DNA of 64,000 nucleotides, taken from Lama guanicoe (Eukaryota). The notes beneath the pieces were generated by a model. The model ran no database searches. It worked only from the letters and a program-made list of their open reading frames with translations, and was not told the DNA's origin. Shown in pieces: positions 3,367-60,000 of this stretch; within the stretch, counting starts at the first letter, position 1, and each line of letters opens with the position of its first letter. The stretch is taken from assembly GCA_013239625.1 (NCBI GenBank), contig MU055928.1:4342499-4406498 (forward strand). Direction: 5' to 3'. The position numbers and the translations under genes were made by a program.

Positions 3367-3471
3367 CATATTGACATCGGGGTCCCTGAAAACCCTTGCA
3401 ACACTGGCACCGCTGGGCTTCACCCTCTGAGTATCTTCTTCCATTGAAACAAGTCCCCATTGCAGAGACAG
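3367..3471 (-). pseudogene. EGFEM1: EGFEM1 exon 4 (first EGF-like repeat), 105 nt, phase 1-1
   Basis: tccttttag| acceptor, ATG|gtgagt donor; SVSAMGTCFNGRRYSEGEAQRCQCCKGFQGPRCQY (part of ORF 3290..3541) with an EGF-type CxCxxGFxGxxC motif. Confidence 0.9.
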
Positions 3472-3689
3472 CTAAAAGGAAGGTGGACAAGAAGGCGGGG
3501 GAGAATGGACTTGAGGGAAAGAAAGAAAATCCCCAAGGCAAGCACCATGTTGCTAATATAGATGTAATCTAGAAACCTGTACCAGTTCCTCCGTAGCCCC
3601 TCCATGGAAAAGTGTTTACATCACAAAGTAACGCTGTCTGAATAAAGCCTTGTAGAACTCTGTACATGGTAACTTCTACATCGCTTGAA

Positions 3690-3795
3690 GCTTTGTAGAA
3701 ATGCCCCATTCCAGATCTACTGAATCAGAATCCACATCTTAACAAGGTACTAGGTGATCTGTATTCATATTCAAGTTTGAGTAGCACTCATCTAA
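3690..3795. mobile_element. MER5-type hAT-Charlie DNA transposon fragment
   Basis: ccattccagatctactgaatcagaatc..ttaacaag..ggtgatctgtattcatattcaagtttgag. Confidence 0.7.
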
Positions 3796-4863
3796 AGAAA
3801 CTCCATGGAGCAGGTGATGGTGTAGCCAAAACAATATAAAAAACCAGCAAGAAATACTAATACCAGAGGCAAAAGACTGTGCTAGATGCCATACCACAAT
3901 ATAAAACATTCATCTCACAGTCATTAATTTCCCAGACTGTGTATTACAGTTGAGATGATATCACGGGCAGATGGATGCGCTGAGCTTAAATCAGCCAGCT
4001 GCGCCCAGCCCTGCGTGCAAATACAGTGACCCTTGTGCATCCCTCCACATTAAGCCTGCTTAACATGGGAAGCCTGAGGCCACTTCACTAAGCTATTTTA
4101 AGAGCAGAAAGCACAGTGGGGAAGGAACCAGGATGCCGACAAAGTCCCGAAGGTGCAGGATAACAGAAAAGATGAATTGTGCTGGGGCGCCGCACTGAGT
4201 GCAACACACCGAAGCATTTTAAGTGACTTCACAGTTACGGTAAACACACAGGTAAAGGAGTCTCTAACTGGAGCCGTTTCTCCTGGCATGGATGAACTAT
4301 ACAATACCACTATTTCTGCTGCTGGAGTGCTGTCAAACATACTCCATAGGTTCTGGAATATCCTCACCAGAGGTTTAGAAAAGGACCACACACCTCATCT
4401 TAAAAAGTAAACTGCTTCCAGAGTTCTGCAATTAATCATGACAAGCACAAGTCGAGAAATCCCATTTAGATTTAGTACGGTGATTTCCCTCCGGACTTTT
4501 GAATCAATTGTGGATTACAAATGTGATGATATGGGAAAGGGGCAAACAGAAAAGGGAGATGGAAGTCAAGGTGTAACCTGTCTGGCTTTAAATAAACTGT
4601 CTTTTACATAAGGAGACAGAATATAAAGCAGCCATTCTACAGGTTCTGATTTCACATCTATCATTGGAAACACTTCACAGAAAGGCTTTTTGTGCATTTT
4701 TGCACATGTCATGTGTGCATTTTCAGTCCAAAGAGATGCTCTGAATCTGTGGTGATTCTAAAGATGCCTAAAACTTGACAGGCATGATATGATTGAAGCC
4801 CAAAACAGAGTAAAACTGTTACTCCTAGTGACAGAGAGTCAGACAGGAAGAATTACAACTTAC

Positions 4864-4973
4864 AGCGGAGGCAGCCAGGTTCATTGTCCCGCCGGCTCCA
4901 ACCAGGGCAGCGCCTGTAGATGGTCTGCTGCTCCATGCTGCATGCTTGTCTGTAGACGGTGTAAGACCGGGTC
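4864..4973 (-). pseudogene. EGFEM1: EGFEM1 exon 3 (EMI domain, C-terminal part), 110 nt, open frame
   Basis: ttcttag| acceptor, T|gtaagt donor; TRSYTVYRQACSMEQQTIYRRCPGWSRRDNEPGCLR (part of ORF 4853..5074). The EMI motif CCPGW appears as RCPGW. Confidence 0.9.
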
Positions 4974-5352
4974 CTAAGAAACACAGAACCTAGATCAGTC
5001 TTGCTTCCTCTAAAGCCCAAAGCTGTCATTTTAAGCCCACTAAAAAATTCTCCCTTCAACCTAAATCCTCCCATTTATATACAAACACACAAATATATTG
5101 TCTGTATATGTTATATATGCACGCATGCACTCACATATGCACACACACACTCCTCACTAAATATGTAACCAAGATTCAATATAGGTATAGTTATTGAAAA
5201 TTAACAGGGACCTCCAGTCCTATAGCATAAGTTACTCAGGCTATCCAAAATGAAACCCCAAATTATGAAGAGAATAATGAAACCCTGCAGGAGAACAAGG
5301 CACATGATTTTCAATTTGACAGTGAAGGCCCCTCATATATTGGTCCCACGAC

Positions 5353-5622
5353 AGCATGCATTCTAACAGTGGTGACATCCCCCACAAGAGGGAGGCAATC
5401 AGTTCTTGGGTAGGAAGGGTGAAAAAGCAACCTTAGCTAATACAAGAGTCAGTGGTCCTACAAACCTGCATAGCACATAAACAGAAATAAAACGTATCAG
5501 TGGTATTAAAACTTCATGGGGAAAAGGGATGATTACTAAAAATTTTTAAAGTTTACAAAGGCTCTTTTGTAAGGGGGAAATGACCAAAAACGGCTGAAAA
5601 GGTTGAAAACATTACACTATAG
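5353..5622. mobile_element. hAT-Charlie-type DNA transposon remnant
   Basis: cagcatgcattctaa...aaggttgaaaacattacacta resemble Charlie-type termini. Confidence 0.45.
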
Positions 5623-6282
5623 CTATTTGTGCTGACCTCTTAACAGAACAAAATACCAAACATCTCTAAACTGGCTAAACTTCCTTTCTATCAAATTGAT
5701 GTCATATTTATTCTTCATCCCCAAAGCAGTATATTCACTCCCCCTCACATACCTATTCCCATATCCCCAGCCCAAACCTCCTCGTTCAAAGTCAAGGTCA
5801 AGTTTCACTTTCTCCAACTTTTCTTTCCCCGTCATGTATATCACTCTTTCTCTCCTCTCAAAAGTAAGGCTTAATGGCTATACCATTTTTTATGGCACTT
5901 AATTTTTCACCATCTTGAAGTGTCTCCTAGTATTTCTGGATGTGTATCTCTCCAACAGGGATATAAGTCTAGGTGAGCATACTTACATACAAACCAAAGG
6001 GATACGAGTTTGGGAAAAAGGCCAAAGATCTTTTAACACAGCCTCAACTCCATACTCAGTGTCATAAATATCTGCTGAATAAAGGAATGTATAAAACTAC
6101 AAAGCTCTTGAAAATAAAAATATAAAACACGTTTTCCTCATTCATGTTTGCTTTCTCAAGTCCGAATGTCTAGAGGTAGTGAACTTACCTTGGTTCAGTC
6201 TAATATCAACAACGGTTAAACCTCTGGGAGGAGGACCAAAAAATCTAAGTGAAAAGCCATTTTCAAAAGCAGGTTCTCTAAT

Positions 6283-6480
6283 GAACAAACGTACTGAGTA
6301 CCTACTATGTACCAGGCATGATGCCACATGTGTGAAATACGTTTTCAGTGAGTCCTCATAATATCCATGTGTGGTGGTATTTTTCTAACTTTACAGACTG
6401 AGGCTCAGAGAAATAGAGGAACTTTCCCAGTGCTATACAGCTGGGAAAAGTGAGGAGAGGCTTTCCAATTTAAACTTCAT
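6283..6480 (-). mobile_element. MIR SINE
   Basis: tactgagtacctactatgtaccaggca..ttacagactgaggctcagaga. Confidence 0.75.
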
Positions 6481-6689
6481 TTAAAGATCCAGAGTTTAGA
6501 CTAACAACAAGAAGAACAACAAAACTATTCATCTGATAAGAATACAAAATGTATATGTAAATATTCACAATTATACATGATGCAGTTTTATTTTATTTAG
6601 TCCTATATTATCAGTGTTCTGCCATTTCTATACAATGGCAAACCCAGTTATCTACAAATGTCCTCAACTTTCTTTTAGCAGTAGTAGTA

Positions 6690-6773
6690 GTAGGAAGAAG
6701 AAGAAGGAGAAGGAGGGGGAGGAGGGGGGAGGAGGAGGGGAGAGAAGGGAAGGGGGAGGCAGAGGAGAAGAAG
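6690..6773. repeat. Polypurine (GAA/GGA) low-complexity tract
   Basis: ggaagaagaagaaggagaaggagggggaggaggggggaggaggagggg... Confidence 0.9.
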
Positions 6774-7453
6774 AATTCATTAATCTAAAGCCATGCTTTT
6801 CTTAACTTTAAGTATCCTGAATTCAGACCAAATTGATTCATTTATATAAAACTTGAACCCATTAGCAACTATTTGTATTAAGAGATACTTAGATGTTTCA
6901 TAAAACTATTTTAGGACTTTTTCTTTTTAAATCCTTATGAAGCCTTAACATAGAAAGCATGTACTTGCTTTGTCTCTCCTCCCCCAGCCAGCTGAGTGAA
7001 CCCTAACTCAAAGGCCATAATACAGGTAAAGAATCTCTAGGTTTCAATTCAAGGTATTACAAGAGAACCAAGGACAGGTCAGGTGGTGGTTCACAACCGT
7101 AGATGCCCTGGATCCAAGTCATGGTAAATTTAGCAAACCAACACAATATTCCTTGTTTCTGTCAGCCTGCTGACTTTCAGCTTTCAGTAGCCTAGTCCTG
7201 TCACGAGGTAAAATTAGAGGCATCTAATCTACTATAGCTCACATATAAATGAGGCCTCAAGTAAAGTAAGAATATATCCTGTTCCTAAAGGAAAACATAT
7301 AACTCAGAAAAGATCCTGGTGGGTGTATCTTTTGCATGTTTATTTAATTATATAATTATTTTCTAAAATGCCTTGAGGTGAAATCTTCAGATGCAGCTGA
7401 GGCTTTGGTTTTGATTTTGAGGAATTAAGAGGAAATAGCAGAAGCACTCTTAC

Positions 7454-7586
7454 CTTATTTCATAACCCACACACCGTCTTGGGCCCGTGCAGCCGTTTCC
7501 AGGTCTTGACGGTGTGTGTGGATGCTTGGACACATGGGTGTGCAAGTCCCACCACCGTCAGTTTCTGTTCTTCGCAAACATTTGGC
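7454..7586 (-). pseudogene. EGFEM1: EGFEM1 exon 2 (EMI domain, N-terminal part), 133 nt, 2-bp deletion
   Basis: Poly-T tract plus taag| acceptor; AAG|gtaaga donor. PNVCEEQKLTVVGLAHPCVQASTHTVKTWK then a shift to GCTGPRRCVGYEIR. A phase 2-2 exon should be a multiple of 3; 133 is not. Confidence 0.9.
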
Positions 7587-9089
7587 CTTAAAAAAAAAAA
7601 AAGAATAGTAATGCAATAAAAATAGATGGCTTTATGTTTTATTCATGAATCATTTGTTCCTTCATTTTCCACAAAAAGCTTGTGGTGACTTACATAGAGA
7701 AGGAGAGAAAAACACAGGCAATGAAAAAAAAAATCAGGCCCAGGAGAAAAAAAAATCAGAAAAGATTTTTAAAAACAAGGGAAAATTTAGAAAGACAAAT
7801 ATAAAAGTCATAAGTTCCCATGTGCTTGAGCAAATCGAGGTGCAAATGATGTTCTGAGCTCTTTGGTAGCCAAAATATAAAAAGACACACAATTGCAAGA
7901 TTCTCAATATCCATAAGAAAAAGCAGGCTGATTCATCAAAAGAAGTTAAATTTTTCCTGGAAAATGTTTCTGAACAATATTTTCCATTAGCATGTTTAGT
8001 TAGCTCAGCTTCACACATAATGCTTGTTTAAACACAAATATTTTTCAACCAGCACCATTCTATCAGTGCTTCCTTATAGGAAATTTATACAAATTTAGAA
8101 GATTTTAGACATATTAAGCTTTAATTTTAAATGCATTGGGCTAGATAGCACCTATCACCTAGGGCGTCAGAATTAAATTCTATTGTAATTCGAAGAATGC
8201 TTTCCTTAGGGAGGAATGATTTACTAGTCCATACCAATTGTCTCGTGTTAGAAAACAATACTAATTATAATTAAACTTTTCATGCATTCAAAGTCACCTG
8301 CATGCCGTACACTGACCTTCCTAAGGTCAGACTTTGATGTTCTTTTGTGCCATCAGGCAACTCCCAGTCTAGCTTAGTCTCCAAAGGCACAATCTGCTGA
8401 AAACAGAAATGAGTTCCTGATTCAGGATTCTAGTCTGTCCCTAAGCAACTCTGAACTTGTCCAGTGATGACACGGACAAAAGCGTCTGACAGTGCTTCCT
8501 GCACTAAAACCCGTTACCTCACCCTCCGCAGCCGCCGTCCCTTTCTGTGATCACTTCTTTCTGTGGTGCTAAATCTCACCATGTGATTTCACTTATAGTC
8601 CAATTCTCACTTTCAGATATATTTCTGAAAGGTGAATTTTTGGACTGTTAACTTCACCTAAACTGAATAAAATTCGTGTTGAACGTTATTTATGAGTTTG
8701 CACAGCACACTAATGCTTTAGGTAAATACTGTAATAAAACAATAAAGGTATAAAGTTCACATAAGTCAGGCATCCATCAAATCATCAAGAATTGGGCAGG
8801 GAGCCTAAAGAAACCCTAGCTTTTAAATGCCATATTAGACTGTAAACTGCCTATACTTAAACTGTTATGTAGGCTTATCTGCTTTTTGAGAGCCAACTAA
8901 TTCCAATTAGAACGAGCTCACCACACATTTGCTTTTTCGGTCAATAGTTTGAAAGCTTACACCTCATGCATCCTTGAACTCTATTTTGTAACCTACTTTT
9001 TATCTATTATTCCATTTATCCATTCATCCAGTCATTTATCCATTCAACAAATACTTACTGTCACCCGCACATACCAGAAGCTTCCCCTC

Positions 9090-9460
9090 ACACTGAGGTT
9101 TGAGTATAAGTAGTTTACTTGGAAAGCGCAGAAAACACTAGTAAGGAAGTGGTGAAATGAGACAGAGAAAGAGAGTCAGCCAATAAAAACATGCATGAGT
9201 AAGCCAGCTAACAATTCTAGTGACGAGCTCCCTAAATGAGTGAGGGAGCCGGGGCATTTATACACGAATTCTTGTCAGTGATTGGTCGAGGGCTACATCT
9301 TCTCCAGCATTTCAGGCAGAAGCACAGGTAGGCAGAGTGAGCGTCCAGAAGCCAAAGTTTAAGTTTTCAGGCACAGAAATGCAAATGCTGGCAGCTGGAA
9401 ATCTGACAGGTGTGCAGTGATGAAGGAGAGGGACATGGGTGCTGCACTGACGGTTTCAGC
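9090..9460 (-). mobile_element. ERVL-class LTR fragment (LTR16/LTR33-like)
   Basis: gaggtttgagtataagtagtttacttgg..gtggtgaaatgagacagagaaag..agccaataaa resembles recalled consensus. Confidence 0.5.
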
Positions 9461-9486
9461 AGCAGAGCGTACCAAGGAAAGGAAGT

Positions 9487-9597
9487 CCACGGTCACTTGG
9501 CACTATAACTGAATCATTTTGCTGTACACTTGAAACTAACACTGTAAATCAACTACACTTCAATAAAAAAAAAATTTTCTTTAATTTAAATAAATAA
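9487..9597 (+). mobile_element. 5'-truncated L1 3' end (artiodactyl-type) with A-rich tail
   Basis: ataactgaatcattttgctgtacacttgaaactaacactgtaaatcaactacacttcaataaaaaa; flanked by aaggaaag(g/t)aagt as a likely TSD. Confidence 0.75.
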
Positions 9598-11729
9598 AAG
9601 GAAAGTAAGTAAAAGCACCTAAATAAATACAAATTGTGAAGTGCTAAGATGGAAGCAATCAGGGGCTGAAACAGAGATAAAGGAAGCTTACTAAGATTCA
9701 CTAATTAGAAAAGCCTCACTGGGAAAGCTGACACTGTGACCTGAAAAGGTGAAAAGAAAGAAGTCAGCCACAGGAGAGCCAGGGGATGCCATTCAGGTGG
9801 AAAGAAATAGAATGAGCAGAGACTCTGAAAGGAGAAGATGGTTGGCCTCCAAAGATCTGAAAGAAGGCCAATTTGGCCCAAGTGATGAGAGCGTGGTAGG
9901 GCAAATAGGGTTTTTCAGCCTGAGGAGTTTTGATGTTATTCTCAGGACACTGGAAACCACAGAGTTTATAGAATTTTTATTTCTGGTCTCATTTCCTACA
10001 GATGGGACCTGGAGATGGACCTGTGATCCTCTCTGACACCAACTGTAGCTCCCCTCCTTGACAATGACTTAGGCTGTATCTGTTCCTGGGCCCTACAACT
10101 AACCACCCAGCCCAATCCAGCAACTGGCCTCCAAATCCCAGGAATCTCTCAAGCCTTTCTTAGGGTTTTCCTAATTCCTACAAAGAAAGAAGCCCCCAGG
10201 GGAAAGTTGTACCTTCAGGAGATCCAAAACCAGCAGCACCAGTTAACAAGGAAAGACACAGCACAAATTTTATGCATCATAAGGAAAATGTATTAGATTA
10301 AAGTTTCTAGAAAATCACATGTAATCCAGATTGTCACCAAGTAAATTCTCTGATAACATCATAAGAAGTGTTACTGTGACTTCAGAACTTCACATATTAT
10401 ACAACTGAACCATAGTTAACAAGCAACATAGTTTTGGTTGAGATGAGTTTATTTTAGTTAACTCATGTTGGGAATGTTTTGGTAAAGCAGTATCATCCTT
10501 GACTCCCAAGCAGATGTGGCTAAATAAAGTCAGTCACCTGGGTATTCTGCAGATGTCCTGAGTGTGTTTCAGTTAAAAAATTAATATTCTTCCTTAACTA
10601 CAAAAGCCATAATTTCTAGCATTTAAAAGAGCCTGAACAAGGAATAAATATAGGAAGTCAAGTTTGCCCCTAAGATCCTCCCAGATATAATCATTGCTAA
10701 TGATCTGATATATTAATATCCAATTCTTTCTGGGGACACACAAACATATTTTTTGCATGCATGGGTTCACAGTCTACTGTTTTTTATACTGTGTAAAAGT
10801 ATTTTCTTAACTTAGCAAACAAAATGGTATGAATATTTTTCCATTTTGAAATTTGTAGAATTACTTTAACCCTTTTGATTTTTTCCCAGAGTATAGGTTT
10901 ATCAGAATAATACAGCAGAATTCATTTAGCCAGCATCCTACTGATACACGTTTAGTTCTTTCTAAGTTTGTGACTATAAACAACTGGTGTCAGTCTCCTT
11001 ACATAAACAACTGAATTACAGATCAATGTTTTTTCTTATATTTTCTTATGAAATATCTGTTTCCTCCAAGTCTTTTTCAGTTCAAGATTTCTTTTAGTCT
11101 CTTCCTTCTATGCTTTAGGCTTTCTCAAGGATCAGATTATCGCTGCCTGTCTGTATTTAAGCACGAGGCACGGAAGCTGATTGGGGGTTCTGTATGATAG
11201 AGAGGGCTTATAACTGGTGGGTTCATGTTAGGTGATTAGGGGTGAACTTTGTTTTTGACAAGCTCCTGGATGCCCATGTATGGAAATCTGATTTTTAGGG
11301 TCATTCAGTTTTTCCAGAAAAGTAGCCCCAATTTCCTGCCTGTGGAAGCAGACAGCTTGTGGCTGGTGCTTGGGGACCAAACAGTGGAAAGAAGTCCTGC
11401 TGTTTTTAGCCCATATTCACCCCTGGGCAGTGCCAGTCTGCACCCTTCTGAAGCTTCTCTGGTCCTCATTCTCCAGAGAAAAGAACCAATCCCATTTCCC
11501 ATTTTTTCTCTCTCTGTTTCTCTCTCTCTCTCTCACCACTCCACCTCCCCAAGTGGGAGTAGGGCACAGCTATTTGTCCAGCTCTGCAGTTTGGAGAAAG
11601 GAACCTGGGATTCTACCAACTTTACATATAGCCTTTCAAACAACTCTTAGCCTCCAGCCCCACACATCTCCCCTGTGCGTCACTTGCCTCCACTCTAAAT
11701 GCTTAATGTTGAGCCTCTCCAGGGTTCCC

Positions 11730-12159
11730 TGTGAAGGGACCAATGACGCACCAGAATGCTATAAAGATTGCATCAAAGTGAAAATATTTGAGCTACAGGT
11801 GCAGAAAGAAATCTTTTCTGAACTTCTCCTATCTGACTAAAGTTGAGATTTACCAGAGTCATCTGCCACAAGTGCCCCCCTCCCCAGCACTCTGGGGAAG
11901 TCTCCTCTCACAGGGGCAACTGACCTGGGGAAGTGGGACATTTCAAAGGTAATCTGTATAAACAAACCTCATCAGAACCTTGCATCCTTTGAAGTTCTAA
12001 ACCCCCCTTATTAAACCAGTATATAAACCTTTATTCCTAGCTGTTCAGAGAGCTACTCCCTACAGAGTTTCTCCTATTAATCTTTCTGTTGTCAATTAAT
12101 TCATGGGCCCCTAAACACTCTAACCTAAGCTGGTATAGAAAAAGATTTTCGTCCCAACA
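11730..12159 (+). mobile_element. ERV1-class 5' LTR (MER34/MER4-group-like)
   Basis: TG...CA termini (tgtgaagggacc...ttttcgtcccaaca), TATA-like gtatataaa at ~12019-12027, followed directly by ERV leader-like sequence. Confidence 0.65.
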
Positions 12160-12800
12160 GTTTCAACAACAAGGGCTGGATGGTTGGAAATCCTCACTCA
12201 CTCTGGAGACGGCAGCTGAGCTCTTGGGATCTGACCAAGCTGGCAAAAGTAACCTTTCTTACTCTCAGACTCTCAGATCTCTGCTTGGGGTCCGGTTGAG
12301 CAAAAGTGCTTAGAGCCTCTTGTCTTTTCAAAAAGAAATTTTCCAAAATTTAGATTTACAGGAGAAAACTTTCTGGTTAGAAGTAGCCTTGTCCTTTAGG
12401 TATTGTGACTCTCACTTTGGATCTTCCAAAGATAGCCACTGTGTTCTGTCTTTTTGTCACTGTCTTTTGTGCTGGTGCTGGTGTTTTGTGCTGGGATGTC
12501 TAAAAGTGTGTCTTGTCATAAGAAGGACAGACATAGCACAGAACACAGGCACAGACTCGGTAAGCCTATGCAAGCCACCGTCACATACTGGTGAGTCTGC
12601 GATTCTCACTGGACCAGTGTCTGGTTGGACAAATTTGCTCTGGGTCACCAATAAAACCAGATGAATTTTCCCTTCTGTCTCAATTTTGTGTCCTGAGAGC
12701 TCGGCTTGGGAACAGAAGTCCTTGCCTGCAAGGACACTGAGATTGTCAGGTCTGTGCTCGGAGATAGCCAACCATGAGGCTGGGGGCCTGAGACATGAGG

Positions 12801-12930
12801 TGCACAAACAGAACTTCCTGCCAATCACTGCCAGCTCTCAGAGAGGTTGTATTTATATACTGGTTTAATAAGGGGGGTTCTGCACAAACAGAACTTCCTG
12901 CCAATCACTGCCAGCTCTCAGAGAGGTTGT
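12801..12930. repeat. Perfect 50-bp direct repeat (12801-12850, 12881-12930) flanking a 30-bp insert
   Basis: tgcacaaacagaacttcctgccaatcactgccagctctcagagaggttgt occurs twice; insert 12852-12879 is the reverse complement of 12000-12027. Confidence 0.95.
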
Positions 12931-14750: not shown

Positions 14751-15129
14751 TGTATTAGTGTCCTCAGGCTGTCATAACAAGGTTTCACAGACCAGCTGGC
14801 TTAAACAACAGACATTTATTTCTCCGTTGTTCTGGAGGTTGGAAGTCCAAGATCCAGGTGCCAACAAGCTTAGCTTTGGCTAAGAACTCTCTTCCTGGCT
14901 TAACCACAGCTGCCTCTCACAGCGTCCTCACAGAGCCTTTCCTCCGTGCGCGCACACACAGACAGGTCTCCGGGGTCTCTGCCTCTTCTTCTAAGGACAC
15001 TAGTTCTATCAGATTAGCATCTCTCCCTTATAACCTCATTTAACCTCAATAACCTCCTTAAAGATCCTTCCTCAAATATGCTCACACTAGGAATTAGAAA
15101 CACATAAATTTGAGGGGGGGTCTCTAACA
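14751..15129 (-). mobile_element. MaLR LTR (MLT1A-like) nested in the ERV internal region
   Basis: tgtattagt..ggctgtcataacaa..ggcttaaacaacagacatttatttct..gttctggaggttggaagtccaagatc matches the reverse MLT1A signature as recalled. Confidence 0.8.
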
Positions 15130-19029: not shown

Positions 19030-19240
19030 NNNNNNNNNNNNNNNNNNNNNNNNNNNNNNNNNNNNNNNNNNNNNNNNNNNNNNNNNNNNNNNNNNNNNNN
19101 NNNNNNNNNNNNNNNNNNNNNNNNNNNNNNNNNNNNNNNNNNNNNNNNNNNNNNNNNNNNNNNNNNNNNNNNNNNNNNNNNNNNNNNNNNNNNNNNNNNN
19201 NNNNNNNNNNNNNNNNNNNNNNNNNNNNNNNNNNNNNNNN
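19030..19240. other. Assembly gap (211 N)
   Basis: Run of n. Confidence 0.99.
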
Positions 19241-21292
19241 NATAGATGTTACAATTTGTATTTATTTCTCCCAGCACTAAATGGTTCTTCAATTTCAGAA
19301 CTATCATTAATTTCTTATAAATGCAAATCTTCATTTCTTATTTTAATCTACAATGAGTTCTCTGAGTCTTCAGAAGATTAACTTTTACATAAAATATTCA
19401 AATAGCAATTATAAATGAGACTTTGTTTTCCCTGGGCAATCTATTAGCTATTACGCATAAACTAGTTTAAAGGAATGGGTGGTCTATATTGATCAGGGAT
19501 ATAATGGACTAATAATGTGGTCCTCCTTCCTTTTAAATGATCCCCTCACAACTCCAAATCCAATCATTAAGAAAAACCTTTTCAATGTTTGTGACTATCT
19601 TTAAATTGTCTTGCCTACCTCCTTAAACCTCCCCTGTTACGATATTTTCTTTCAGAACCTCTGGAAAGACCTGAACCACCACGTTGATCTTAATCAAGAG
19701 AAAGCTGCAACTGTTTTGCCCTCACTTTTCTTTGACTGCCATCTCAAGGCAGAAACACTTGTGAATCTTTACCTGAAGACACAAACTGGAAGGCAAAGGA
19801 GGCAAACCCTGAGCACACCCCAGGGTCAGACTGCGGGCGCTCTCCTGCGGCGGGTCCATCCTCGCCTGAGCCGGGCCCCCAGCCCGGGGCTCTGCTTAGC
19901 CAAAGCTCCACTACACTCATCCAGAGTTTGAGGACTTCCCTGGAGCAAATTCTCCACCGTTCAAACCTCCCAGCCCTCTCTCCTCTAAAACTTAGAAGAC
20001 AGAACAACAGAATCTTCAGGATTCCAAGCCAACCAGCTCTGAATTCTATTTGTCAGGTCTGACATCCTTCCTGGCCTAAGTCATTCATCACCGTTTTGTC
20101 TTCACTGCTCATCTCTTTAACTTATGATGGGAGGCCCCTTGTGAATATGCTATTGATTCTACATAGAAAAACAATAGTTGATTTAGAGCCTGTGTTATCT
20201 CTCTTAAAAAAAAAAGAAAAAACCTAGTGCTAATACATGTTCAACATCAAGTCACAGAGAGTGACATCAATAGCTCAAAAATAATGGAAATCACACTGCT
20301 TTGAAGATACATCAATGAAGAATTCACAATTCGCTCCACAAAACTTCCGTGGGTATCTACCCTGTATCAGCGGTTGTGTCAGGGCCCTGTAATATAGTCG
20401 AAAGTGAACTGTCCTTGAAGCCAACAAACTTAACCTTCAGGCCCCTCACTAGCCTGGGCCGCTTCCAGCCCTGGAAGAAGTTAAAAACTATTTTTGCATT
20501 GACATGAGTTTTTGTAAGATTTGCAAACATGAGGGATGTATGTATTCTTTAAGAGGGCCTCCCAGATTTCCTAAGTCTCAGGCTACATAAAAACTAGAAT
20601 TTACCCCAATGTCAAGGGAAATGTCACACAACTATTTCCTAGGCCAGGGGTTACGCAGGGCATTAACTTTCTAACTGGGAAACACAAATGGTACCAAAAT
20701 GCATCCAAATAAATCTGACAGAAAGCCTTACTTGAAAGAGGCAGGCTAAATTAAAGTCACTTCTGCCTGTCATGTCTGGGTCAGATAAATTTCCTTTCAG
20801 GAACTTGGATGTCTTCTGTTAAATCTTTCTTGTACAGGTTAAAAGAGTTCAGCCTTCTCATCAAAGATAATTGGCCTTACTATTCAACATCCTTTTGTTT
20901 ATCAAAATTAAATTAAGGTCAGGATCAGGGTCCTAAAGCAATATATTGCTGAGACTGAGGATATGGGATGGGAGGAAGTAGAGAACACAGATAATAATCT
21001 TCAATTATCAGATGATGCCACCTTCCTAAGGTCAAAAAGTCTAAGACAAAGATGAGGTAAGTTTCAGATAAAAGTTTTATTACAGATTTCTCTCATTGAA
21101 AAACTATTTGAGTAAGTTAGGAAAGCTATCATCTCTCTCCCTGATAACACTTAAATACAGCAGATGTTCTAATCTTCCACAGAATCATGGCTACTGCAAA
21201 GGAGAATCCATCCTCCAATAGGTTTTTTTTCCCCTTTAAATTTACATTTAAAAAAGTAATGGCAGTTTTCCATGGTGAGGGAATCTCCTAGA

Positions 21293-23879: not shown

Positions 23880-24019
23880 NNNNNNNNNNNNNNNNNNNNN
23901 NNNNNNNNNNNNNNNNNNNNNNNNNNNNNNNNNNNNNNNNNNNNNNNNNNNNNNNNNNNNNNNNNNNNNNNNNNNNNNNNNNNNNNNNNNNNNNNNNNNN
24001 NNNNNNNNNNNNNNNNNNN
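23880..24019. other. Assembly gap (140 N)
   Basis: Run of n. Confidence 0.99.
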
Positions 24020-24338: not shown

Positions 24339-24494
24339 NNNNNNNNNNNNNNNNNNNNNNNNNNNNNNNNNNNNNNNNNNNNNNNNNNNNNNNNNNNNNN
24401 NNNNNNNNNNNNNNNNNNNNNNNNNNNNNNNNNNNNNNNNNNNNNNNNNNNNNNNNNNNNNNNNNNNNNNNNNNNNNNNNNNNNNNNNNNNNNN
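24339..24494. other. Assembly gap (156 N)
   Basis: Run of n. Confidence 0.99.
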
Positions 24495-34649: not shown

Positions 34650-34702
<53 letters not shown>

Positions 34703-47510: not shown

Positions 47511-47832
47511 ACAGGTTAGAAGTATTTAAATTGTTTGGGGCCAAACTGCTTCGGAGTTCAAAATTCTTCAGACTTTAGAAAGGCAATATGGTACATATGT
47601 GCCTAAAAGCATCTGGAGTCACACCCTAACCAAACACATTAATATTTCTTCAAAGAAACTTACGTATTTTCATATTGAATTAACATATCTCTAATTAGAC
47701 TCACATCAGCTCAGTGTAGGTTTTGCCACAAAATTAGTTTTTGACAAATAGCAACAACAACAAAAAAGTACCTGCTGGCATTTGGAGCTTTTTTGGATTT
47801 CAAAATTACGTGTAAGAAATTATGAAACTATT
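47511..47832. mobile_element. TcMar-Tigger-like DNA transposon remnant
   Basis: tacaggtt..tttggggccaaactgcttcggagttcaaaattcttcagactttagaaagg..ttttggatttcaaaatt. Confidence 0.45.
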
Positions 47833-49710: not shown

Positions 49711-49829
49711 CAAAAGATAAGAAGTGGTTCTCAGCATGAGTAAACCGTGAAAGGCATTAGAAAATAAATTTTTGATGTCAAGATACATTCCCAGTTTATT
49801 CATGCTGAGAACAGTTTCCTTATCTTTGG
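49711..49829. repeat. Imperfect inverted repeat (~42-bp arms, ~35-bp loop)
   Basis: Perfect core gttctcagcatga (49727-49739) / tcatgctgagaac (49800-49812), extended by aaagataag/cttatcttt and taaac/gttta. Confidence 0.85.
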
Positions 49830-51229
49830 GACTCTGTAAGCTGGAATAGTCAAAATTTGTTTAAACTCCACGATAAATAAAGAAGCAACTGAATTGGACT
49901 ATTATTCTATTATCACATAATTCTCTCTGTTTTATAGTGTAACAAGAATCTAAAAGTACTGCAAGTGAAGATTAGTACTTTGAGATCCAGGAAAAAAAAT
50001 TCAAAATCAGGTTGCCTTTCTCCTGATCCTTATCCAGTAGACTAGACTCTGAAAGTAGTTTTCTTAGTAATTCAGAGAAACCAAACCTCAAGTCTCCTGG
50101 GATTACCTCCTCCCTCAAGAGTAAAAGCCACTAAAGCTCAGAATTACTGTCAATTCTTAATTAACCATATCAGTGAGGAAGAACACTTAACACCACTGAA
50201 AACTGTCCACTGAAGAGTGACAGAAAACATTTCCCAGATCACGAGTTGACAAGCCACATAATTTATATATCAGGAGCTGACTTTTCAAACAGTTGGCTGG
50301 AAAAGCCTTTACTTATTCCAAACATGTCCTCATCATTATCACATGGTTATCAAACAGATTTGTTTAAAGAAACTAGAGATCTTCACATACCTATGACAAA
50401 TGCAAATGTCACTTCAGGTTGCTGAGACAGACATACATTCAATTCATCCTATCTGAGGGACCTGGGACTATCTGTGAAATAGACGACTTTTGTGCTGGGT
50501 CATTGAGATTAGCCTGGAAGAGATGAAGGAGGCAGGAAGTTCACTGAGAGTAAAGGAAAGTATAGCGTGCATCTGGGGGTCCCTGGGGTACCCTGGTGAG
50601 GACAGAGCAGCAAGTGCATGGGGGCACTGATGGCAACACCATCCACCCACAGTGTGTATCACCCCCAGAAGATACTCTGCCCTTCCAACAACCTCTAAGG
50701 CCTTACCGTGCTCTGTTCTCTCCCTGGAATGAACGCTCTTCTGTTCCGAATCCTACCTCACCTTCATATGCCACCACTTCCATGAAGCTTTCCAAGATTT
50801 CCTCTCATGAATTTGGTTTCTCCTTCCTTACAGTAATATTTTGGTCTAAGTCCTTTCTGGCACTTAACTATCCTACAACAAAGAACACAGTTTTAGAAGT
50901 TCCTTAGGGGTGGAGACTTTATCTGATTCATCTTTACAATCTCTGCAGAATCAAGGAAACTGCCTTGGGTGTTGTGAGTTGATCTTAAATTGTGCCCCAT
51001 TTGTAATTAGCTCTGCTGGAGTAGGACAGCAGGAAGTCCTTTCTCCTGTCATTTCCCGCAAGGGGAATAATGAGACTGAGAATGATGGTGGATACAGAGT
51101 AAATGGTTCGTCAGGCAAGAACGCAGACTCTCCAGGAGTTTCCACTTCTTGTCACCATGACCAAAGTGATGGCTGCCAGAGTTAAGTGCTTGACTGAAAC
51201 ACAGTTCTTCCCATCAGGTTTGTCTGGGT

Positions 51230-52405
51230 AACTCCAAGTCAATTACTTTTCAGTAGCGACACCCTCCATTTTCCTCTTTTATTTTACATCCCTGAGACCT
51301 TCCCTGGCATATACACCCTCTCCTTCCTTCTCAGTTTCTTAATCTCCTCCTTGGCTCCTTTTCCATCTGTCCTCCTCTCCTATATTAAAATTCCCTGAAT
51401 TTTCTTCCTCAGTAATCTTTTCTTCTCACTTTTTATACGTGCTTGTCGCCTGTCACTTCATTGCCCGCATACAGACCTAGCGGAGACCACTCTCCCGGCC
51501 TCAGACCCCTCTGTGGAGCACCCACAGAACACCGCCACCTGAGGTCCCACAGACACCTAAGTGCCCGCATGGTCACCGCTGAACCTGCCTTCTTCTCCCT
51601 TCAAGCTCCTCCCTCTCCTAAGTTTCTGATTTTCTCCACTACCCAGAGGTCGCCTCAAGCCTTTCTATCTCACACCCTCACTTCCACACATTCATCAACT
51701 CTTCCTGGTTGTAACCTTCAGAATCTGTTCCTCCCTTTCATCACCACCACCATTTCGTTTGTTTGTAAGACTCGCGTCACTGCTCCTCTGCTACTGAAGG
51801 AACCTCCTGATTGGGCGCCTCACCTCTGGCCTCTTCCCTCTCCAGCCCATTCTTCAGTCAATAAACACAGATCTGATTAGGTCCCTCTCCTGCTTTTAGT
51901 CAGTCACTTCCTGACTCCTCCTTGGTCCCCTGTAAAGTCCACCGTTCTCAACTTGATATGTAAGACCCTTCCTGAACTATCCCCTCATGGCTGCCCTAAA
52001 CTCATCTTCCACTGCGACTCCTTTCATATTCTTCCCTCCAGACATATCATTAAGAAAATGATTTATGGGTTTTCTTTTTTTTTAAAGGAGAGATCTCACC
52101 TCCTCCTACTTGTACATGCTCTTCCAGAACACACCATCACCATCACCACCTTTACCATCCACCCAATCTCTACTCAGTGAATCAGCTAAGAAAAATTAAC
52201 TTAAAAACCTACACTGAGCCCTTGGTTTCTTTCTTCCCTCCAGCCAGGTGGCACCTCTGCCAACTTTTGCTTGACTAGGCTCTGGTCTGTTCTTTGATCT
52301 CCCCCTAAGTCTATGAGTTGCTCAAGGACAGGGGATCACCCTTTCCTGTCTGTATCCCCAAAGCCCAGCAAAGTACTTGACGTTGAATAAATATTTGTCA
52401 AATGG
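51230..52405 (+). mobile_element. L2 LINE fragment
   Basis: C/T-rich L2 body ending gagttgctcaaggacaggg..tgtatcccca..gttgaataaatatttgtcaaatg. Confidence 0.65.
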
Positions 52406-52720
52406 AAGTAACTAGAAAAGAAATCAGCTACATATGAAGCAACTAGGTTAGTGATCTGACTTCAGCTTCAGTGGAGAAAAGCCAGATACTTGGGATTTGA
52501 ACAGAGCCCCATGAGTCAGCTCATTAAACCTCTGTGTTCATCTAGTTCCAGAGTCTTCCCATCTATTGAAAAAGAACTGGAAAACAAAGTGCTGGATTTA
52601 ACAAAAGAGAACAAAACTAGATTTACGCTTTTGCAAAGTTCATGCTGCTGAAATGGGGAAGGAAAATGTTAGGGGTACTGGGGGACAATTCTTCAAGGCC
52701 TCTTTCATTTCTGCATATCT

Positions 52721-53176
52721 TGTGAAGAAGCTTTGATGGCTTTTGTTTTAGAAGGATGTTTGTATAGAAAACAGCCTTGGAAGATTTAGAGAGTATATCC
52801 TGCCAGGGCTGAGGTCAGACTTGTTTCCTGAGCAGAGTAATAAAGACGGTATCTCCCTCTAAGGGCAAAAGCTGGGCAAGTTTGCCAGCAGCCCTTTTGT
52901 AATATTAGAAGTTTTTAAAGCCTGGGTTCCTCAGCTGTGACACAGATGCACTGTGTGCACAGTCTACATTTGGGCCCCTCCTGACTGCCGCATGGAAAAG
53001 GGGGGGGGGAGTCAATGCAAAGCCAAACTCATGCTACCTGCCTTGACGTGACTAAGAAAGTCCTTTGTCTCTGATCCAGGAGTCTCATGTCTTCCAAAAG
53101 CAGCTATGAACTGTGGCAGACTAACTTGTTACCCTGCACATAGAGTAAAATCTTATACACTTCATAGTTCTTGACA
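52721..53176 (+). mobile_element. Solo LTR, probably ERVL class (family uncertain)
   Basis: TG..CA termini; gggttcctcagctgtgacacag and aaagtcctttgtctctgatccaggagtctcatgtct..catagttcttgaca are LTR-like motifs. Confidence 0.65.
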
Positions 53177-53264
53177 AGGAGAAGGGAGCTAAAGGAAAAA
53201 AAACTTTAATCGCTCAATAAACGTTTATGAAACTGAATAATAACAGAAAGATAAAATCTTAAAT

Positions 53265-53535
53265 ACAGTGTAATAGTTATGAGCACAGATTCTACCGTCA
53301 AACAGACTAGGTTCATATTCCTAGCTTTGAAAATTATCAACTACATAAACTTTCCTGAGCTTCATACCCATATATGCAATTTCTCTGGAAAACCTTAGCT
53401 TCCCTGGATCTCAATTTCCTTATTATGAAATGTAGTACTAATATTACCTTCTGATAGGGTTGTGAGGATTAAATAAGTTAAAATATGGAAAGTCCTTAAA
53501 TTGTTCCTGGCATTTAATAAGTGCAATTTAAGAAT
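53265..53535 (+). mobile_element. MIR SINE
   Basis: gtgtaatagttatgagcacagattct..tcaatttccttattatgaaatg..atagggttgtgaggattaaataagttaa. Confidence 0.75.
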
Positions 53536-53544
53536 AATATTCTG

Positions 53545-54470
53545 ATGCCTGAACTTTATTCTGTGGACAATGTTTTTAAGAAAGGAAATGAGGATAGTAG
53601 GTCTTTGCTTTAGAAACAAACTCTGATAGAAATTAAATTGTATATATAATAAAAATGAAGAGGATGGAGAGATTGGGAACCAGAAGACCATCCAAGAAAC
53701 AACTGGAATTGTCCAGGAGACAAAATGAGATGGCTGGGCTTGAGTATGGCTACAGGAAAGAGAACTCATTCAAGAGATATTTCATTGCTAGTGTTTATAG
53801 AATTTGGCACCTGATAGGAATATAAATATTAATTTTAAGTTATCCAGTCATCATACGCAAAGGCCTTTTCATGATCATCTCACCTAAAGCTCAAGGTAAA
53901 CTGGGAGAAAAGTGACAGATATACGATTTCAAAGATGAGGCAAGCAGCACAGAGGGAGAAAATGTTGAGAGAGACGATGATAACTAGAGATGCTCTATGG
54001 ACACCCTAAGTCTCAGACCCAGAGTGATGATGATTCTATAGTTGAAAATGCAAGTCTGTGGCTCTGAAGAGAGCAGGGCTGGATGCACAAATTTGGGTTT
54101 CCTCAAAATAGAACATATGATGGAAGCCCATGAAAAGAAAGAGATAAACCAGGTAAAGCATACAGAATGGGAAGAGAAATAAAGATAGAAGGTGAGAGAA
54201 AGCAGGCGCCAGTGCATGAGAAGAACTGCAGATGATGCTGAGTGTGTGTACAAAGGAAAAGGACCAGCGGAGAAGCCGGGAAGAGGAATAGCCAGTAATA
54301 TATATGCTACAGAAAAATGAGAGTGGGGTGAGCTCTGAAAAAAAGGCACCCTCTGAGAAGGAATTTTAGCAGAGGAGGCCAGACTGCAGTGGGTTCAATG
54401 ATCAGTGATAAGGTCACTGACAAGCATCAAAGAGCTGTTCTTGAGAAACTGAAGGTGAAGGAGAAAAGAA
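53545..54470 (-). mobile_element. L2 LINE fragment(s)
   Basis: G/A-rich reverse L2 (gtccaggagacaaaatgagatggctgggct, gaggccagactgcagtgggttcaa). Confidence 0.55.
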
Positions 54471-54974
54471 GCAAGGTCAAGACAGATCCACATATGGACA
54501 CAGACAGATCATAAACATGGAAAGGAGAGAGACGCAGAAAGGGAGACTTGGACACATGGGGGAAAGGGGAAAAATAATAGAAAAGAGTTGGTAATACAAA
54601 AAAGAGATGACTAATAGAGAAAAAAATTTAAGATGGAATGTGGAACATATAGGGAAGGGATTACTTTGAAAAAAAAGTGCAAAATTCTTCCCATGAGATA
54701 TGTAAGAAAGAAGTAAAGATGCATAAAAAGATATACTGAAGCTGAGGACACAGAGCCTGACAAAGTATTATCTATTAAATAATATCAGGTCAATGTCATC
54801 AATACAGTATGGGTCAACGCTGACTGCTAAAACTACATGGCAGAGGTGAAGTTTAGGGCCCCTTGGGGCAACAGGAGAAAGAGTAAGCTATTGCTGAATA
54901 CAGTAGGAGGACCAGAGAGGCTAGTAATTTGAGAGCAGAGGAAGGAGAGGTCAAGGGCAGAGGGACCAGCACAG

Positions 54975-55170
54975 GAAAGAGTGATGAGGAACAAGGCTCT
55001 GGAGTTAGACAGAACACTCCGAAGCCCATCCCACTACATCTCAGCTATGAAACTTCAGGCAAATTACTTAACCTCTCTCTCTCTGCCTCAGTGTCCTCGT
55101 CTGGAAAATAGAGATGACAGTATGATCTACTTCAGATGATCGTTGTTAGCATTAAAGATATTTATAAACA
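54975..55170 (+). mobile_element. MIR SINE
   Basis: ggctctggagttagacag..ggcaaattacttaacctctctctctctgcctcagtgtcctcgtctggaaaatagagatgac. Confidence 0.8.
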
Positions 55171-55321
55171 CAAACTGCTGGAAATAAAGGTTTGCCCATA
55201 GAGAGAGCACACAGCCTTCTCCACTTGGCTTTACACTCACTCAGTGTGGCTGACCTCACGAGAAAGAAAAACATTTTTGAACTTATGTACGCTGAGTAAA
55301 TGACAGACCACAGGCTACGTT

Positions 55322-55451
55322 AAATTATTTACAAATTTAAAAGTAGAGTATTACCAGCCCCAGACATCTCTTATTGGCTCAATCTCAAATTATTTACAAA
55401 TTTAAAAGTAGACTATTACTAGCCCCAGACATCTCTTATTGGCTCAATCTC
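55322..55451. repeat. 65-bp tandem duplication (2 copies, 2 mismatches)
   Basis: aaattatttacaaatttaaaagtaga(g/c)tattac(c/t)agccccagacatctcttattggctcaatctc at 55322-55386 and 55387-55451. Confidence 0.95.
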
Positions 55452-58400
55452 TTGCTTTATCAGAAGGAAAAAACAAAACAAATTCCAACATGGTGTGTGG
55501 TGCAAGAAATAACTCTGTCAATTCCCCTTCACGATTCTGGATTATTACAGATTATTACAGCATTGTACTTTTTTCTACTTCTAAATGCATCAATTCTTCA
55601 AAACTCTAAACCTCTGCCACTCTGACCACAAGTTTCTCATCAGCTATAGAAGGCTGGGGTGAAACAGCTCTGTATGCATGTATTGAGGCTGGAGTTGGGT
55701 GAGTAAATTGTATCACATCAGGCACATTTTGGATTTGTATGTCAACCTGTATTGGGTGGATACCTGCGGTAGGGAATGGCTGGCTGTGAGATGTCCTAAA
55801 CAGTGTAGGCGACTGCTGAGTCACCAAGTGGCCACACCTTTTTAAAACTCCCCCCAAGTGTCACATAGCCTTCTCTACTTGGCTTTATCTCAAGTCCCAG
55901 GAACTTCAGCGACTGGATCAGCCTTTATATACTTTGGCCTGCATGGTGTCTATCTGCTGCACACCCAAGCTTACTTGTTCCACCATGTCGTATACAATAA
56001 TTATGCAAGTGTTTACAAGAGAGCGTTAGAAAGGATAAATTTTAATAGAGTGCATTACAGCCAGTCATTTTCCTTTGATGTCTCAAAGATCTGGAGTGGA
56101 GTTTATTTTTGTCTATTTAATCCTTTAGAAAACATTTGCAGAGTACCATTAACATAAGTAAACTCTTCTATATCCCTTTATCAAAATGCCATCACCAGTT
56201 ACAACCCTCCAATTCATAATGTACTTGCCAAGGATAGCTTTCCTCAGTCCACAATTCCCAGTTGACGCCTAGCCCATCATTTTAATACTTAAATACCTAC
56301 AGCCATGAGACAGCAGGATAATTTCTTATGAAAAGACTCAGTGAGGAGGAGAGAAATCACATGCTCCTTGTGATGAATGATCTTAGCCACTACAGGACAA
56401 TTAGCAACCCAACCCACCTCCACACCTAGTACCAAATGCCAATAAAAACTTGCACCTTTCACATTCGTCCAAAAAGCCCCACAGGTTCCTTAATACCACT
56501 AGGCAGAAGGTACCAACCACACTCCCAATGAGAACCCCAGGCAGTGATTACAAAGAACTTCTTAGAAATACAAGCTGGGCCTGAGTGTTCTGAAAGGGAC
56601 TGTATTTTTTAAGAACTCTGGCATGGGAATTCAAACTGCTTGGATCCAAATCTTGTGAATTCTTGGAGTATGAACCTAACATTACTGTGTCTCCTTCTTC
56701 ATCATAAATGGAGACGAAAGTAGGGCATACCTTGTAGGGCTATTTCCAGGATAGAATAAAATAATACAAATAAAGTAGTTAGAAATTTACCTGGCTTCTA
56801 AGTTAAAAATTCAAACAGGTTAAGTATTAATTACCTGTGATTTCCAATGTCAACAGGCATAATAGGTACTGAGGCACTCTGTGGAATACTGATTTTATCA
56901 ATTTGTCTAACCTTAGTTATACAAGGTTTCCTAAATGTGATAAGATAAGGTCATCAGACAGATCAATTATCATTATAGTTGGAGGACCCGGATGCCATAC
57001 ATGTTTTGCCTCATTAATAAAATTTCCTTTGGAAAGGAGCTTACCTGTGGAGGAATGTACCATAAATACAATGCATTACATTCAGGCTGGCCATTATTTA
57101 GCTGCACAGTCATTTTCTCTTTTCAGTGTCACCCCAGCTCCAAAATCTGCTCAAGTGCAATATCAGCTGCATGAAACTTTTACCTGTGTTAATGACCTAT
57201 AAGTGCCAGTCAGCAGGATGATGCATTCTCATTAGTGGTCCCCACCTCATTAGACGCCTACTCTCACCGATAATGGATTTCAGAGGTCAATAAAAAAATC
57301 TCAGGAAGAATTCTCTTCAATTTAATAGTTAGACAGGTGTGCGGAAGCCAAGTGCTATACCTGGTTGGATTCTGCATGCCTACAACAATTGCAAAGGCAT
57401 CTGTAAAAACCGAGCACTAAATCCCAACATGGTTTCTGCCGAAGAAACCATTAACTCTAATACCAAGGAAGACTAAATAAAAATTTGATTGGATTCTTCC
57501 CATCCAGTTTTCAGAAAGTACTACAAGTCATCAGAGTGATCTCAATAACTCCCAGGAAGAGCATCTCTATTAAACACCCAAGAATTTATATTGGTTTTAA
57601 TATCCAATCTCATGTCACCTGATAAATGAGCTACAGTAGCAGTGTCCTTTAAAAAAATGCAATGTCATCCTTCTAGCCTTTTCAACAAAAGTATCAATAC
57701 TGAAACATAAGGTAAAATAGCTAAGCAACATAAAAAGTGTCGTGGTATTTCTGTTATTTCTCAGTGCCCCACGAAGGGATTATTCTGTCTCATGTGCATG
57801 GGTAGATACCTATAAGCCAGCCAGGGTCCACTTTAATAACAGCACTGATAAAGGTAAGAGCAGGGCTAGCCAGCAAGCTTGCTAAAAAGCAGTGTCTAAG
57901 GAGTGGAGGCTTATGCACACACAAGCTACCCAAAGTAAGATGTGTTTTCTGAGATAAACTGGAGAGGAAAAGCTTAAATCAACCTTCTCTTCAAATAAAC
58001 AAGACACATCTTATCAATGTAAGAGAAATCACCTACCCAGAAACTCCTTGCATTTCTGCCAAAAATGTATTTACAAACTATGTAGGAAAGGAGTTCTACG
58101 ATGTCACTGCACCCTGGCCATGTCTCAAGATTTATAGTTAGTGACATTTGCACTAACCAGGTAGCAAATTGAATCTCACATGAGAAGGATGAAATAGGGA
58201 AATATAACGTGAATCCAAAAATAGTATTTTTCTGACAATAAAAAGTCAAGACCCAGAAAGGTATAGATGGCTTTGTGTTCTTATATAAACCATTTTTCCG
58301 TTATGAAGCATTCACATTTCAGAAAATCAAAGATGAAGCAAAGAAGTAGCATATACATTTAAATGTTCAAAATCCTCTGGCGTCTATTCATAACCGCTCA

Positions 58401-58988
58401 AGAGCAGAAAGGAAAAGCCGAATTAGATTTGGCTTCTGTCTCAGACAGTTCGGGGATGATCCCCCTGATGCTACAGAATTCAGTGCAAACTTCTTCAGGC
58501 AGTCAAGGCGACCCAGCAATTGGTAAACATTCAGACTTCCCCTGAGCTTCTCGCTATGCTTGACACAGTGACCAAGAATGAGTATCTCCTAGCGTTCATC
58601 AGTTCTAATCTGGAAATAAAACCATGCCCCATCCTCAGAGGATGCGTTTCTGTCATCTCCCCATTCTGTAGTTCTCTCCTAACGGGGTTAGCATCTAAGT
58701 GGCCGCGCATTCAGCCCTTGACATACTCGCCTCCCCAGCTCCTCACTTCGGCAAATGAGCCGGGCAGGATTCCCTCCCATCAAACCTGTGGAATAACCCA
58801 CTCCTCCGGACTATGAGATACTTCTCCAGAAAATAATAATAATAAATGATAGATAGATATAGATCATTGGTCTCTAGAAAGAACATGTCAAGAAACCCGC
58901 TGTTCAACATGATTTCTTTCAAAACCCTTTCAGAAAGTGGAACTTGTAGTCAATTACTCTTCCAAACAGGAAATCAACTCTCTCTCTT

Positions 58989-59034
58989 ACACACACACAC
59001 GCGCGCACGCACACACACAAACACACACACACAC
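58989..59034. repeat. (CA)n/(CG)n microsatellite at the CpG-island edge
   Basis: acacacacacacgcgcgcacgcacacacacaaacacacacacacac. Confidence 0.9.
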
Positions 59035-60000
59035 CGGGCGGGGGTGGGGAGTGGTGAAATTCTGTCAGCAGCTGAGAAAGTATCAGTCAGGTAGGAAGCA
59101 CACAGCCCTGGATCGCGGTCTCTGCCCGAGGACGCGCTGGGGACCGCGCTCTCGCCGCGCTCGGTCTGGGACAGCCCACGGACCCCGCCCGCTGCCCGCT
59201 GGCAGCTCACGCCCTGCACCCCTTCCCGGAGGGAACGGCTCCGGTCGCAGGGGCCGCAGCAAGTCCGCGGTGGGAGGAGGCGCACAGGGCCGGCTCTCCC
59301 CACGCGTCCCGGAGCGCGCGGGTACCACTTACATGCTCGGCCGGAGCTGAAGGGCGCTGCCTGGCGGCCACCCAGGCGCAGAAGCACCAGAGCCACAGTC
59401 GGCAGGTCATCTCCGCGGGGCGGAGCGGCTTCAGCCGCCACCCCGGCCGCGCGCCGAGCGCCACTCGGGCTCCGCGAGTCCGAGCCCGGCACAGAAGTTG
59501 AGCTCGCCGGACAGAAGTTGGTGTGCGGGGCTCGCGGGGCCGGCGAGGTGCGTCTCCCTGCGGAGGGCGCGGCAGCAGCTCTGCCCCACTAGGCAGCACC
59601 GCCGACTGGGAGAGCTCGGGCGCTGAGGCCGGGCCAGCCCCCGAGGCGCCTGGGCCGGCGAGATGCGCACCCTAGCTCCTTCGGGAGCGACTGGAAACCT
59701 GCGATCCCCACGGCCCCGCAGCCCCCGCAGCCTTGGTGCCATGGAAACGCGCTCGCAGCCCTCCGGGCCCGGCCCCTCTGGAGCGCTTAAAGAGACAGCC
59801 CCGCCGCCACCACGGGCTCGCGCTGCTGGGCGCCCCCCACCCCCGCGCCCTCCTCACCCCTCCTCTCCACAAGCGTCCCGGAGGCGGCGAGGCAGTGGTT
59901 GGACACTGGGGGCTGGAAGGGCATCTGAGACGCGACGTAGGGGGCTCTGCTCAATCCTCCCGCCCAACTCTGCTCCCCACCTCTTCCTACCCACCCCCAC
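59030..60000 (-). promoter_or_regulatory. CpG island / promoter spanning EGFEM1 exon 1
   Basis: Abrupt GC- and CpG-rich block in otherwise AT-rich, CpG-depleted DNA, with GC-box-like motifs and the first coding exon inside it. Confidence 0.9.
59333..59410 (-). pseudogene. EGFEM1: EGFEM1 coding exon 1 (signal peptide), 78 nt, inferred 11-bp frameshifting deletion
   Basis: ATG at 59410-59408 (gcggagATGa); donor CAT|gtaagt at 59332. MTCRLWLWCFCAWVAA is in one frame and GSALQLRPS-AT| in another. Confidence 0.85.

Follow-up and report, generated by a model that had tools for sequence, protein, structure and literature searches.

The window, a 64,000-nucleotide stretch of the Lama guanicoe genome, contains four minus-strand exons that correspond to exons 1 to 4 of EGFEM1, and the splice ends are AG and GT in all of them. 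The following features were located in window coordinates.

60274-60068, minus strand: probable alternative first exon; 54% identity over 65 ungapped amino acids (E ~1e-14), donor matching 7 of 9 consensus positions.
59001-60000, no strand assigned: CpG island spanning the promoter, the 5' UTR and exon 1; GC 0.72-0.73, CpG observed/expected 0.74-0.91.
59410-59333, minus strand: coding part of exon 1, with a signal-peptide-like N-terminus; 78 nt against 89 expected, donor gtaagt.
59363-59373, minus strand: location of the -11 lesion; remaining copy of what was probably an 11-nt tandem repeat.
7586-7454, minus strand: exon 2, first half of the EMI domain; 133 nt against 135 expected.
7494-7496, minus strand: location of the -2 lesion, which falls on the Gln of WKQGC, a conserved motif; no homopolymer, frame switch at the equivalent of query residues 61/62.
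7455-7457, minus strand: TAA that closes the normal-ATG frame after 69 codons of spliced exons 1-2.
4973-4864, minus strand: exon 3, second half of the EMI domain; 110 nt, frame intact, internal Met at 4936 (the start of the Camelus models), Cys96Arg at 4912-4910.
3471-3367, minus strand: exon 4, first EGF-like module; 105 nt, frame intact.

Protein matches of the individual exons had E values of 1e-9 to 1e-13 and so cannot be attributed to chance. When both breaks were replaced by X, the frame-corrected read-through was 146 amino acids long, carried the leader, EMI and EGF exon layout, and was colinear with EGFEM1 of bison, horseshoe bat and mouse. Across exons 1-4, the splice donors matched 6 to 8 of 9 consensus positions and the acceptors contained 13 to 18 pyrimidines in 20 positions. 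A Pfam search with exon 3 gave an EMI match of E = 0.004, below the curated cut-off, and exons 2 and 4, each searched alone, gave no match. The first intron measures 52 kb and contains three assembly gaps (19030-19241, 23880-24019 and 24339-24494; 508 N in total). A tandem duplication of 65-nt units that are 97% identical was present at 55322-55451. Within the 64-kb window, no further exon, second copy of the exons, other gene or tRNA was found; the expected neighbors of EGFEM1 are GOLIM4 on one side and MECOM on the other.

An earlier note, made from the sequence alone, had assigned the gene to EGFEM1 and the DNA, as probable, to a camelid, and both assignments were supported. A tree of exons 2-4 was built from 35 rows after exclusion of 10 that were partial or mis-modelled; in it, the window fell within the placental EGFEM1 clade (support 100/98), sister to wallaby EGFEM1, and the MEGF6 rows formed a separate clade (97/89). 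MEGF6 is a paralogue with the same leader-EMI-EGF layout and approximately 50% identity to the window over exons 2-4, but it differs in its separate placement and in having kept Cys96 and Cys114. Exons 2-4 of the window were 72-74% identical in amino acid sequence to EGFEM1 of bison, deer and bat, and the EGFEM1 models of Bison (P0040), Odocoileus (P0004), Rhinolophus (P0037) and mouse (P0007/P0022) have the same exon order and phases. In the bison, deer, bat and mouse models, exons 1-4 lie in one frame, whereas the window carries the -11 and -2 lesions and C96R. The closest match was to Camelus: 56 of 59 amino acids of exons 3-4 were identical to Camelus ferus (34 of 35 for exon 4), and a search with exon 3 among longer proteins returned two candidates, the EGFEM1 models of Camelus dromedarius and C. 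ferus. With three amino acid differences from C. ferus in the 59 compared, the window sequence is neither the C. ferus nor the dromedary sequence; it comes from a camelid, probably a South American one.

The EGFEM1 reading frame, as read from the assembly sequence, is broken by two deletions. Using bison, deer, mouse and armadillo proteins as queries, tblastn placed one frame switch inside exon 1 and another inside exon 2; against the bison protein, exon 1 encodes residues 1-16 in one frame and residues 15-30 in the next. Because the 146-amino-acid read-through is colinear with the bison, bat and mouse proteins, the intact exons would measure 89 and 135 nt. The losses of 11 and 2 nt do not compensate each other, as the earlier note had stated. 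Recalculation of its spliced product gave the same result, with exons 1-2 running from the ATG at 59410 for 69 codons to the TAA at 7457-7455. Both of the detours it had described as closed also ended in a stop: skipping of exon 2 led to a TGA in exon 3 (4883-4881), and initiation at the Met formed across the AT-G junction gave 42 codons before a TGA in exon 2 (7462-7460). The alternative first exon, when spliced to exon 2, ran into the same TAA as the normal start. The two frameshifts and the stop after 69 codons were thus reproduced at the level of the assembly, and the note's reading of EGFEM1 as a pseudogene is supported.

Translated in the ATG frame, the eleven bases at 59373-59363 give WVAA, and one frame on they give GWPP; the bison and deer orthologues contain WVAAGWPP within a single frame. 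Judged from these proteins, the ancestral exon 1 is likely to have had two near-identical 11-nt units, and slippage between them may have removed one. Loss of a repeat unit in sequence of 72% GC, in an assembly gapped by three N-runs in the window, would also fit an explanation in which the exon-1 deletion, or both indels, are erroneous or private to this assembly and the camelid gene works or is only partly damaged. We consider this very unlikely, as the -2 lesion lies outside any homopolymer and an error in exon 1 alone leaves the gene still broken at exon 2. Further, independent Camelus models fit a start imposed by the -2 lesion, share C96R, show a neutral-like loss of cysteines and contain a further out-of-frame stretch. 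Sampled words of positions 3000-8200 were 94-98% shared in 17 sequencing runs carrying five organism labels, a comparison too coarse to resolve one indel.

In the NCBI annotation, the Camelus models (C. dromedarius P0001; C. ferus P0002 and P0024) are protein-coding, with an internal Met as the start. The dromedary and C. ferus models both begin at MEQQ, and with the -2 lesion present, MEQQ is the first in-frame Met for the exon-3 frame. This start supports the presence of the -2 lesion in Camelus but is not proof of it, since a 5'-truncated model would look alike. Cys96Arg, within the EMI domain, was common to the window, P0001 and P0002 and was absent from every other aligned orthologue and MEGF6 row. 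A second change, C125Y, was common to the window and C. ferus P0002; it was discounted as a sign of decay, since no placental retains C114, its likely partner. Since the Camelus models combine a predicted internal-Met start with the shared C96R and a background rate of cysteine loss, we infer that selection on the protein probably ended before the split of Old and New World camelids. The camel "EGFEM1 protein" records are probably pseudogene fragments.

Word-index protein searches with length limits found no intact camelid EGFEM1 protein, and the camelid forms they returned were all broken, two of them on 122-Mb contigs. The window itself has kept the promoter, the upstream alternative exon and a 52-kb first intron. 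From these protein searches and the preserved layout, it is extremely improbable that this locus is a dead duplicate and that an intact EGFEM1 lies elsewhere in the genome.

A shortened protein might still be made through a cryptic splice site or from the exon 3 Met, as the NCBI annotation of the camel gene implies. In line with this explanation, neither the promoter CpG island nor any splice site is damaged, the coding frame is open throughout exons 3 and 4, and NCBI holds several camel isoform models. Moreover, when GT and AG sites around exons 1 and 2 were combined, 70 of the 424 combinations reopened the exon-3 frame, the best of which paired the two true donors with a cryptic acceptor at 7524. 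However, none of the 70 combinations kept more than three of the five native motifs of exons 1-2, each needed at least one weaker site, and use of the acceptor at 7524 would drop the first two EMI cysteines. A product begun in exon 3 would leave a disulfide-rich protein devoid of its leader, and the downstream cysteines in Camelus decay at the background rate. We therefore regard a shortened protein product as highly improbable; the protein-coding function of EGFEM1 is most likely gone in camelids.

To quantify constraint, cysteines were used as a marker in 33 rows, leaving out the acidic linker and exon 4, which is degenerate in all placentals; the outgroup rows are all predicted proteins with few residues per species and possible sequencing errors. 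The C. ferus model had lost 5 of its 43 cysteines and, among the other consensus residues, 26 of 219, a ratio of 0.98; one of the five lost cysteines lies inside an out-of-frame stretch. The mouse had lost none of 62 cysteines and 49 of 336 other residues (Fisher P = 0.01 for cysteine loss versus C. ferus), and nine pooled muroid models, which are not independent, had lost 2 of 535 and 430 of 2733, respectively. The ratio was at least 0.79 in 10 of the 33 rows (both camels, the window, white-tailed deer, oryx, three toothed whales, otter and one further model) and at most 0.15 in 17 (nine muroids, naked mole-rat, horseshoe bat, armadillo, red deer, bison and three further models). Intermediate values were obtained for six: Kogia, Molossus, manatee, beaver, Damaraland mole-rat and Cercocebus. 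By this measure, the toothed whale, otter, oryx and white-tailed deer models look neutral, and those of muroids, horseshoe bat, armadillo and bison look constrained. Cysteine changes affecting the CC in the second EGF module were not counted towards decay, and the EGF exons absent from the bison and bat models were not taken as lesions; one mouse isoform skips the same exons.

Shifted-frame stretches of at least 25 bits were detected in 11 of 38 models, including deer, Molossus, Kogia, Neophocaena, Fukomys and C. ferus, at a cut-off that was chosen after the results had been seen (the positive control scored 69.7 bits, and no negative control exceeded 20.0 bits). Out-of-frame matches below 25 bits were treated as noise. 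The C. ferus model contained an additional downstream out-of-frame stretch of 26.5 bits, against a null maximum of 23.8. Since 4 of the 11 models with such stretches spare their cysteines (naked mole-rat, vole and two further models), out-of-frame stretches can be gene-model artefacts.

Overall divergence gave a different picture. Exons 2-4 of the window had changed at 11 of 78 placental-consensus columns, other placentals ranged from 8 of 82 to 17 of 75, with the mouse highest, and the window branch in the exons 2-4 tree was 0.18, which is not long. Measured at these conserved columns, exons 2-4 of the window are no more diverged than those of other placentals, and this counts against the pseudogene reading.

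Some of the relaxation appears to be old, because the placental stem branch is long (0.21) and Cys114 is lost in all placentals. In addition, each placental row had changed at 8 to 17 of at most 57 columns that are near-invariant outside placentals, and fish models are far longer (1321 amino acids for P0078) than most mammalian ones. These observations would fit a single old relaxation in the placental ancestor, with the camelid, primate and whale lesions as late steps of a shared decay. This explanation is unlikely: in 17 of the 33 rows, representing rodents, a bat, armadillo and two ruminants, cysteines are still spared, with a ratio of at most 0.15, which requires selection long after the placental radiation. 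Partial early relaxation may well have prepared the later losses.

Both camelid lesion sites were in frame in bison, white-tailed deer, two bats, armadillo and muroids. Given the species tree, the intact frames of bison, deer and the two bats at both sites place the origin of the lesions on the camelid line. EGFEM1 likely died on the camelid stem. The lost cysteines of toothed whales, among them one Cys-to-Ser change common to all four species and not found in camels, lie at positions other than the camelid ones. Human EGFEM1P is the same gene as the camelid locus and is described, in the cited portions of two papers, as a transcribed pseudogene and the host of miR-551b (PMC9264824, PMC7391693). 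In a comparison made through a catarrhine proxy rather than the human sequence, the Cercocebus model (P0060) was in frame through both camelid lesion sites, carried neither camelid frameshift and had lost its cysteines at other positions. Because this catarrhine model keeps both frames, the primate and camelid lesions differ. The earlier note's suggestion of a loss independent of the human one is supported. It was too narrow in naming only the human-camelid pair, as models from several other placental lineages show signs of decay.

Collectively, these data suggest, with a probability of roughly 80%, that EGFEM1 is broken in camelids, likely as a unitary pseudogene, and was lost independently of primates. 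From the normal start, the two uncompensated frameshifts would yield a 69-residue junk peptide. The message is predicted to be a target of nonsense-mediated decay or to give rise only to leaderless fragments from the exon 3 Met. The paralogue MEGF6 is a possible back-up, and such redundancy could be a reason why EGFEM1 is dispensable; miR-551a lies in MEGF6.

The 5' end of the gene is intact in the window. The CpG observed/expected ratio of the whole window is 0.28, and the CpG island and splice sites are intact. The segment at 60274-60068, approximately 0.7 kb upstream of exon 1, matches the N-terminus of mouse isoform X11 and of a rat isoform model from a shared Met and is a probable conserved alternative first exon or promoter element. 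On the minus strand, the 5' UTR at 59596-59411 is open in frame with the ATG; the 5' UTR and exon 1 were approximately 85% identical over 78 residues to the extended N-terminus of the deer model, with only 72% for exons 2-4. By this comparison, the 5' UTR of EGFEM1 is strongly conserved. Three RNA-like runs had word shares of 0.06-0.15, which were not counted as evidence.

By analogy with human EGFEM1P, the camelid transcription unit is probably still used, most likely as the host of miR-551b in a later intron, so that the transcript would be kept as a microRNA host while the coding frame decays. The cited text reports co-expression, in human, of EGFEM1P and the miR-551b that it hosts (PMC7391693), and a cattle study places EGFEM1 and MIR551B in one 1-Mb interval in the part cited (PMC13491712). 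Within the window, mir-551 was not found (Rfam, 0 hits at the gathering score). The 18 sub-threshold Rfam hits at 5000-64000, all to miRNA families matching simple repeats, were rejected.

The camelid loss is probably one of several separate placental losses. On present sequences, selection on the protein appears to have been lifted separately in toothed whales, otter, some ruminants and catarrhines and to have persisted in muroids and a few others. We put forward only tentatively, as a possibility somewhat short of even odds, a broader reading in which EGFEM1 ranks with the extracellular-protein genes that placental mammals have lost more often, was inactivated separately in camelids, toothed whales, catarrhines, otter, manatee, free-tailed bat and some ruminants, remains under selection in muroids and a few others, and retains its promoter and splicing for the miR-551b host transcript. 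If true, this would represent a repeated switch from a coding gene to a microRNA host that human-referenced screens for gene loss have missed; EGFEM1 would be hidden from such screens because humans lack the protein.

Recurrent gene loss is a known pattern, and camelid EGFEM1 is a fresh case of it. According to the cited parts of the respective reports, GBA3 (PMC7360587), PCSK9 (PMC7929951), PON1 (PMC10202596) and KRT24 (PMC6662840) have also been inactivated repeatedly by lineage; EGFEM1 differs from these genes in having no known function or linked trait. Searches of an open-access literature collection showed no report of EGFEM1 loss in camelids or across mammals, and subscription papers, bioRxiv supplements or the supplementary tables of large screens may list the gene. 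The names of the gene were absent from the main text and one supplement of the study of primate unitary pseudogenes by Zhang et al. 2010 (PMC2864566).

In the portions of the literature cited here, mouse Egfem1 is used to mark alveolar and ductal myofibroblasts of the lung (PMC8188567; bioRxiv 10.1101/2025.05.26.654588) and serves as an expression marker in two further papers (PMC4247008, PMC5472330). The cited passages of these marker papers give no tested function for it. A pig study, in the section cited, described EGFEM1 as a novel gene lying under a copy-number variant (PMC11344843). With a set of natural knock-outs across mammals, one could look for the trait that tracks EGFEM1 retention, and such a set would warn that results from mouse Egfem1 may not carry over to species without the protein. 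The value of the finding is limited by the lack of a known function or phenotype for EGFEM1.

Several further observations concern the more distal parts of the gene and its relatives. In the exon 4 EGF module, the first cysteine (Cys114) was replaced in 18 of 18 placental rows, a placental-wide degeneration, and the second was also gone in rodents, armadillo and manatee. Many therian models (P0010, P0011, P0016, P0061, P0105 and P0024) stop shortly after one exon, with GNRCQ and a short tail. Fish models span 1300-1800 amino acids, and the vole and P0074 models retain extra laminin-type EGF exons that are partly out of frame. The C-terminal half of EGFEM1 may have been shed or made optional early. 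The model P0190 is an EGFEM1 remnant with a tail that resembles a translated Alu, which suggests a decayed primate copy. A metagenome scan for mammalian host DNA of EGFEM1 returned six loci, none matching the window by blastn, and the two best were fish-type. These two, on contigs L002 (732-869) and L003 (823-960), carry vertebrate egfem1-like exons of the fish type and probably represent host DNA.
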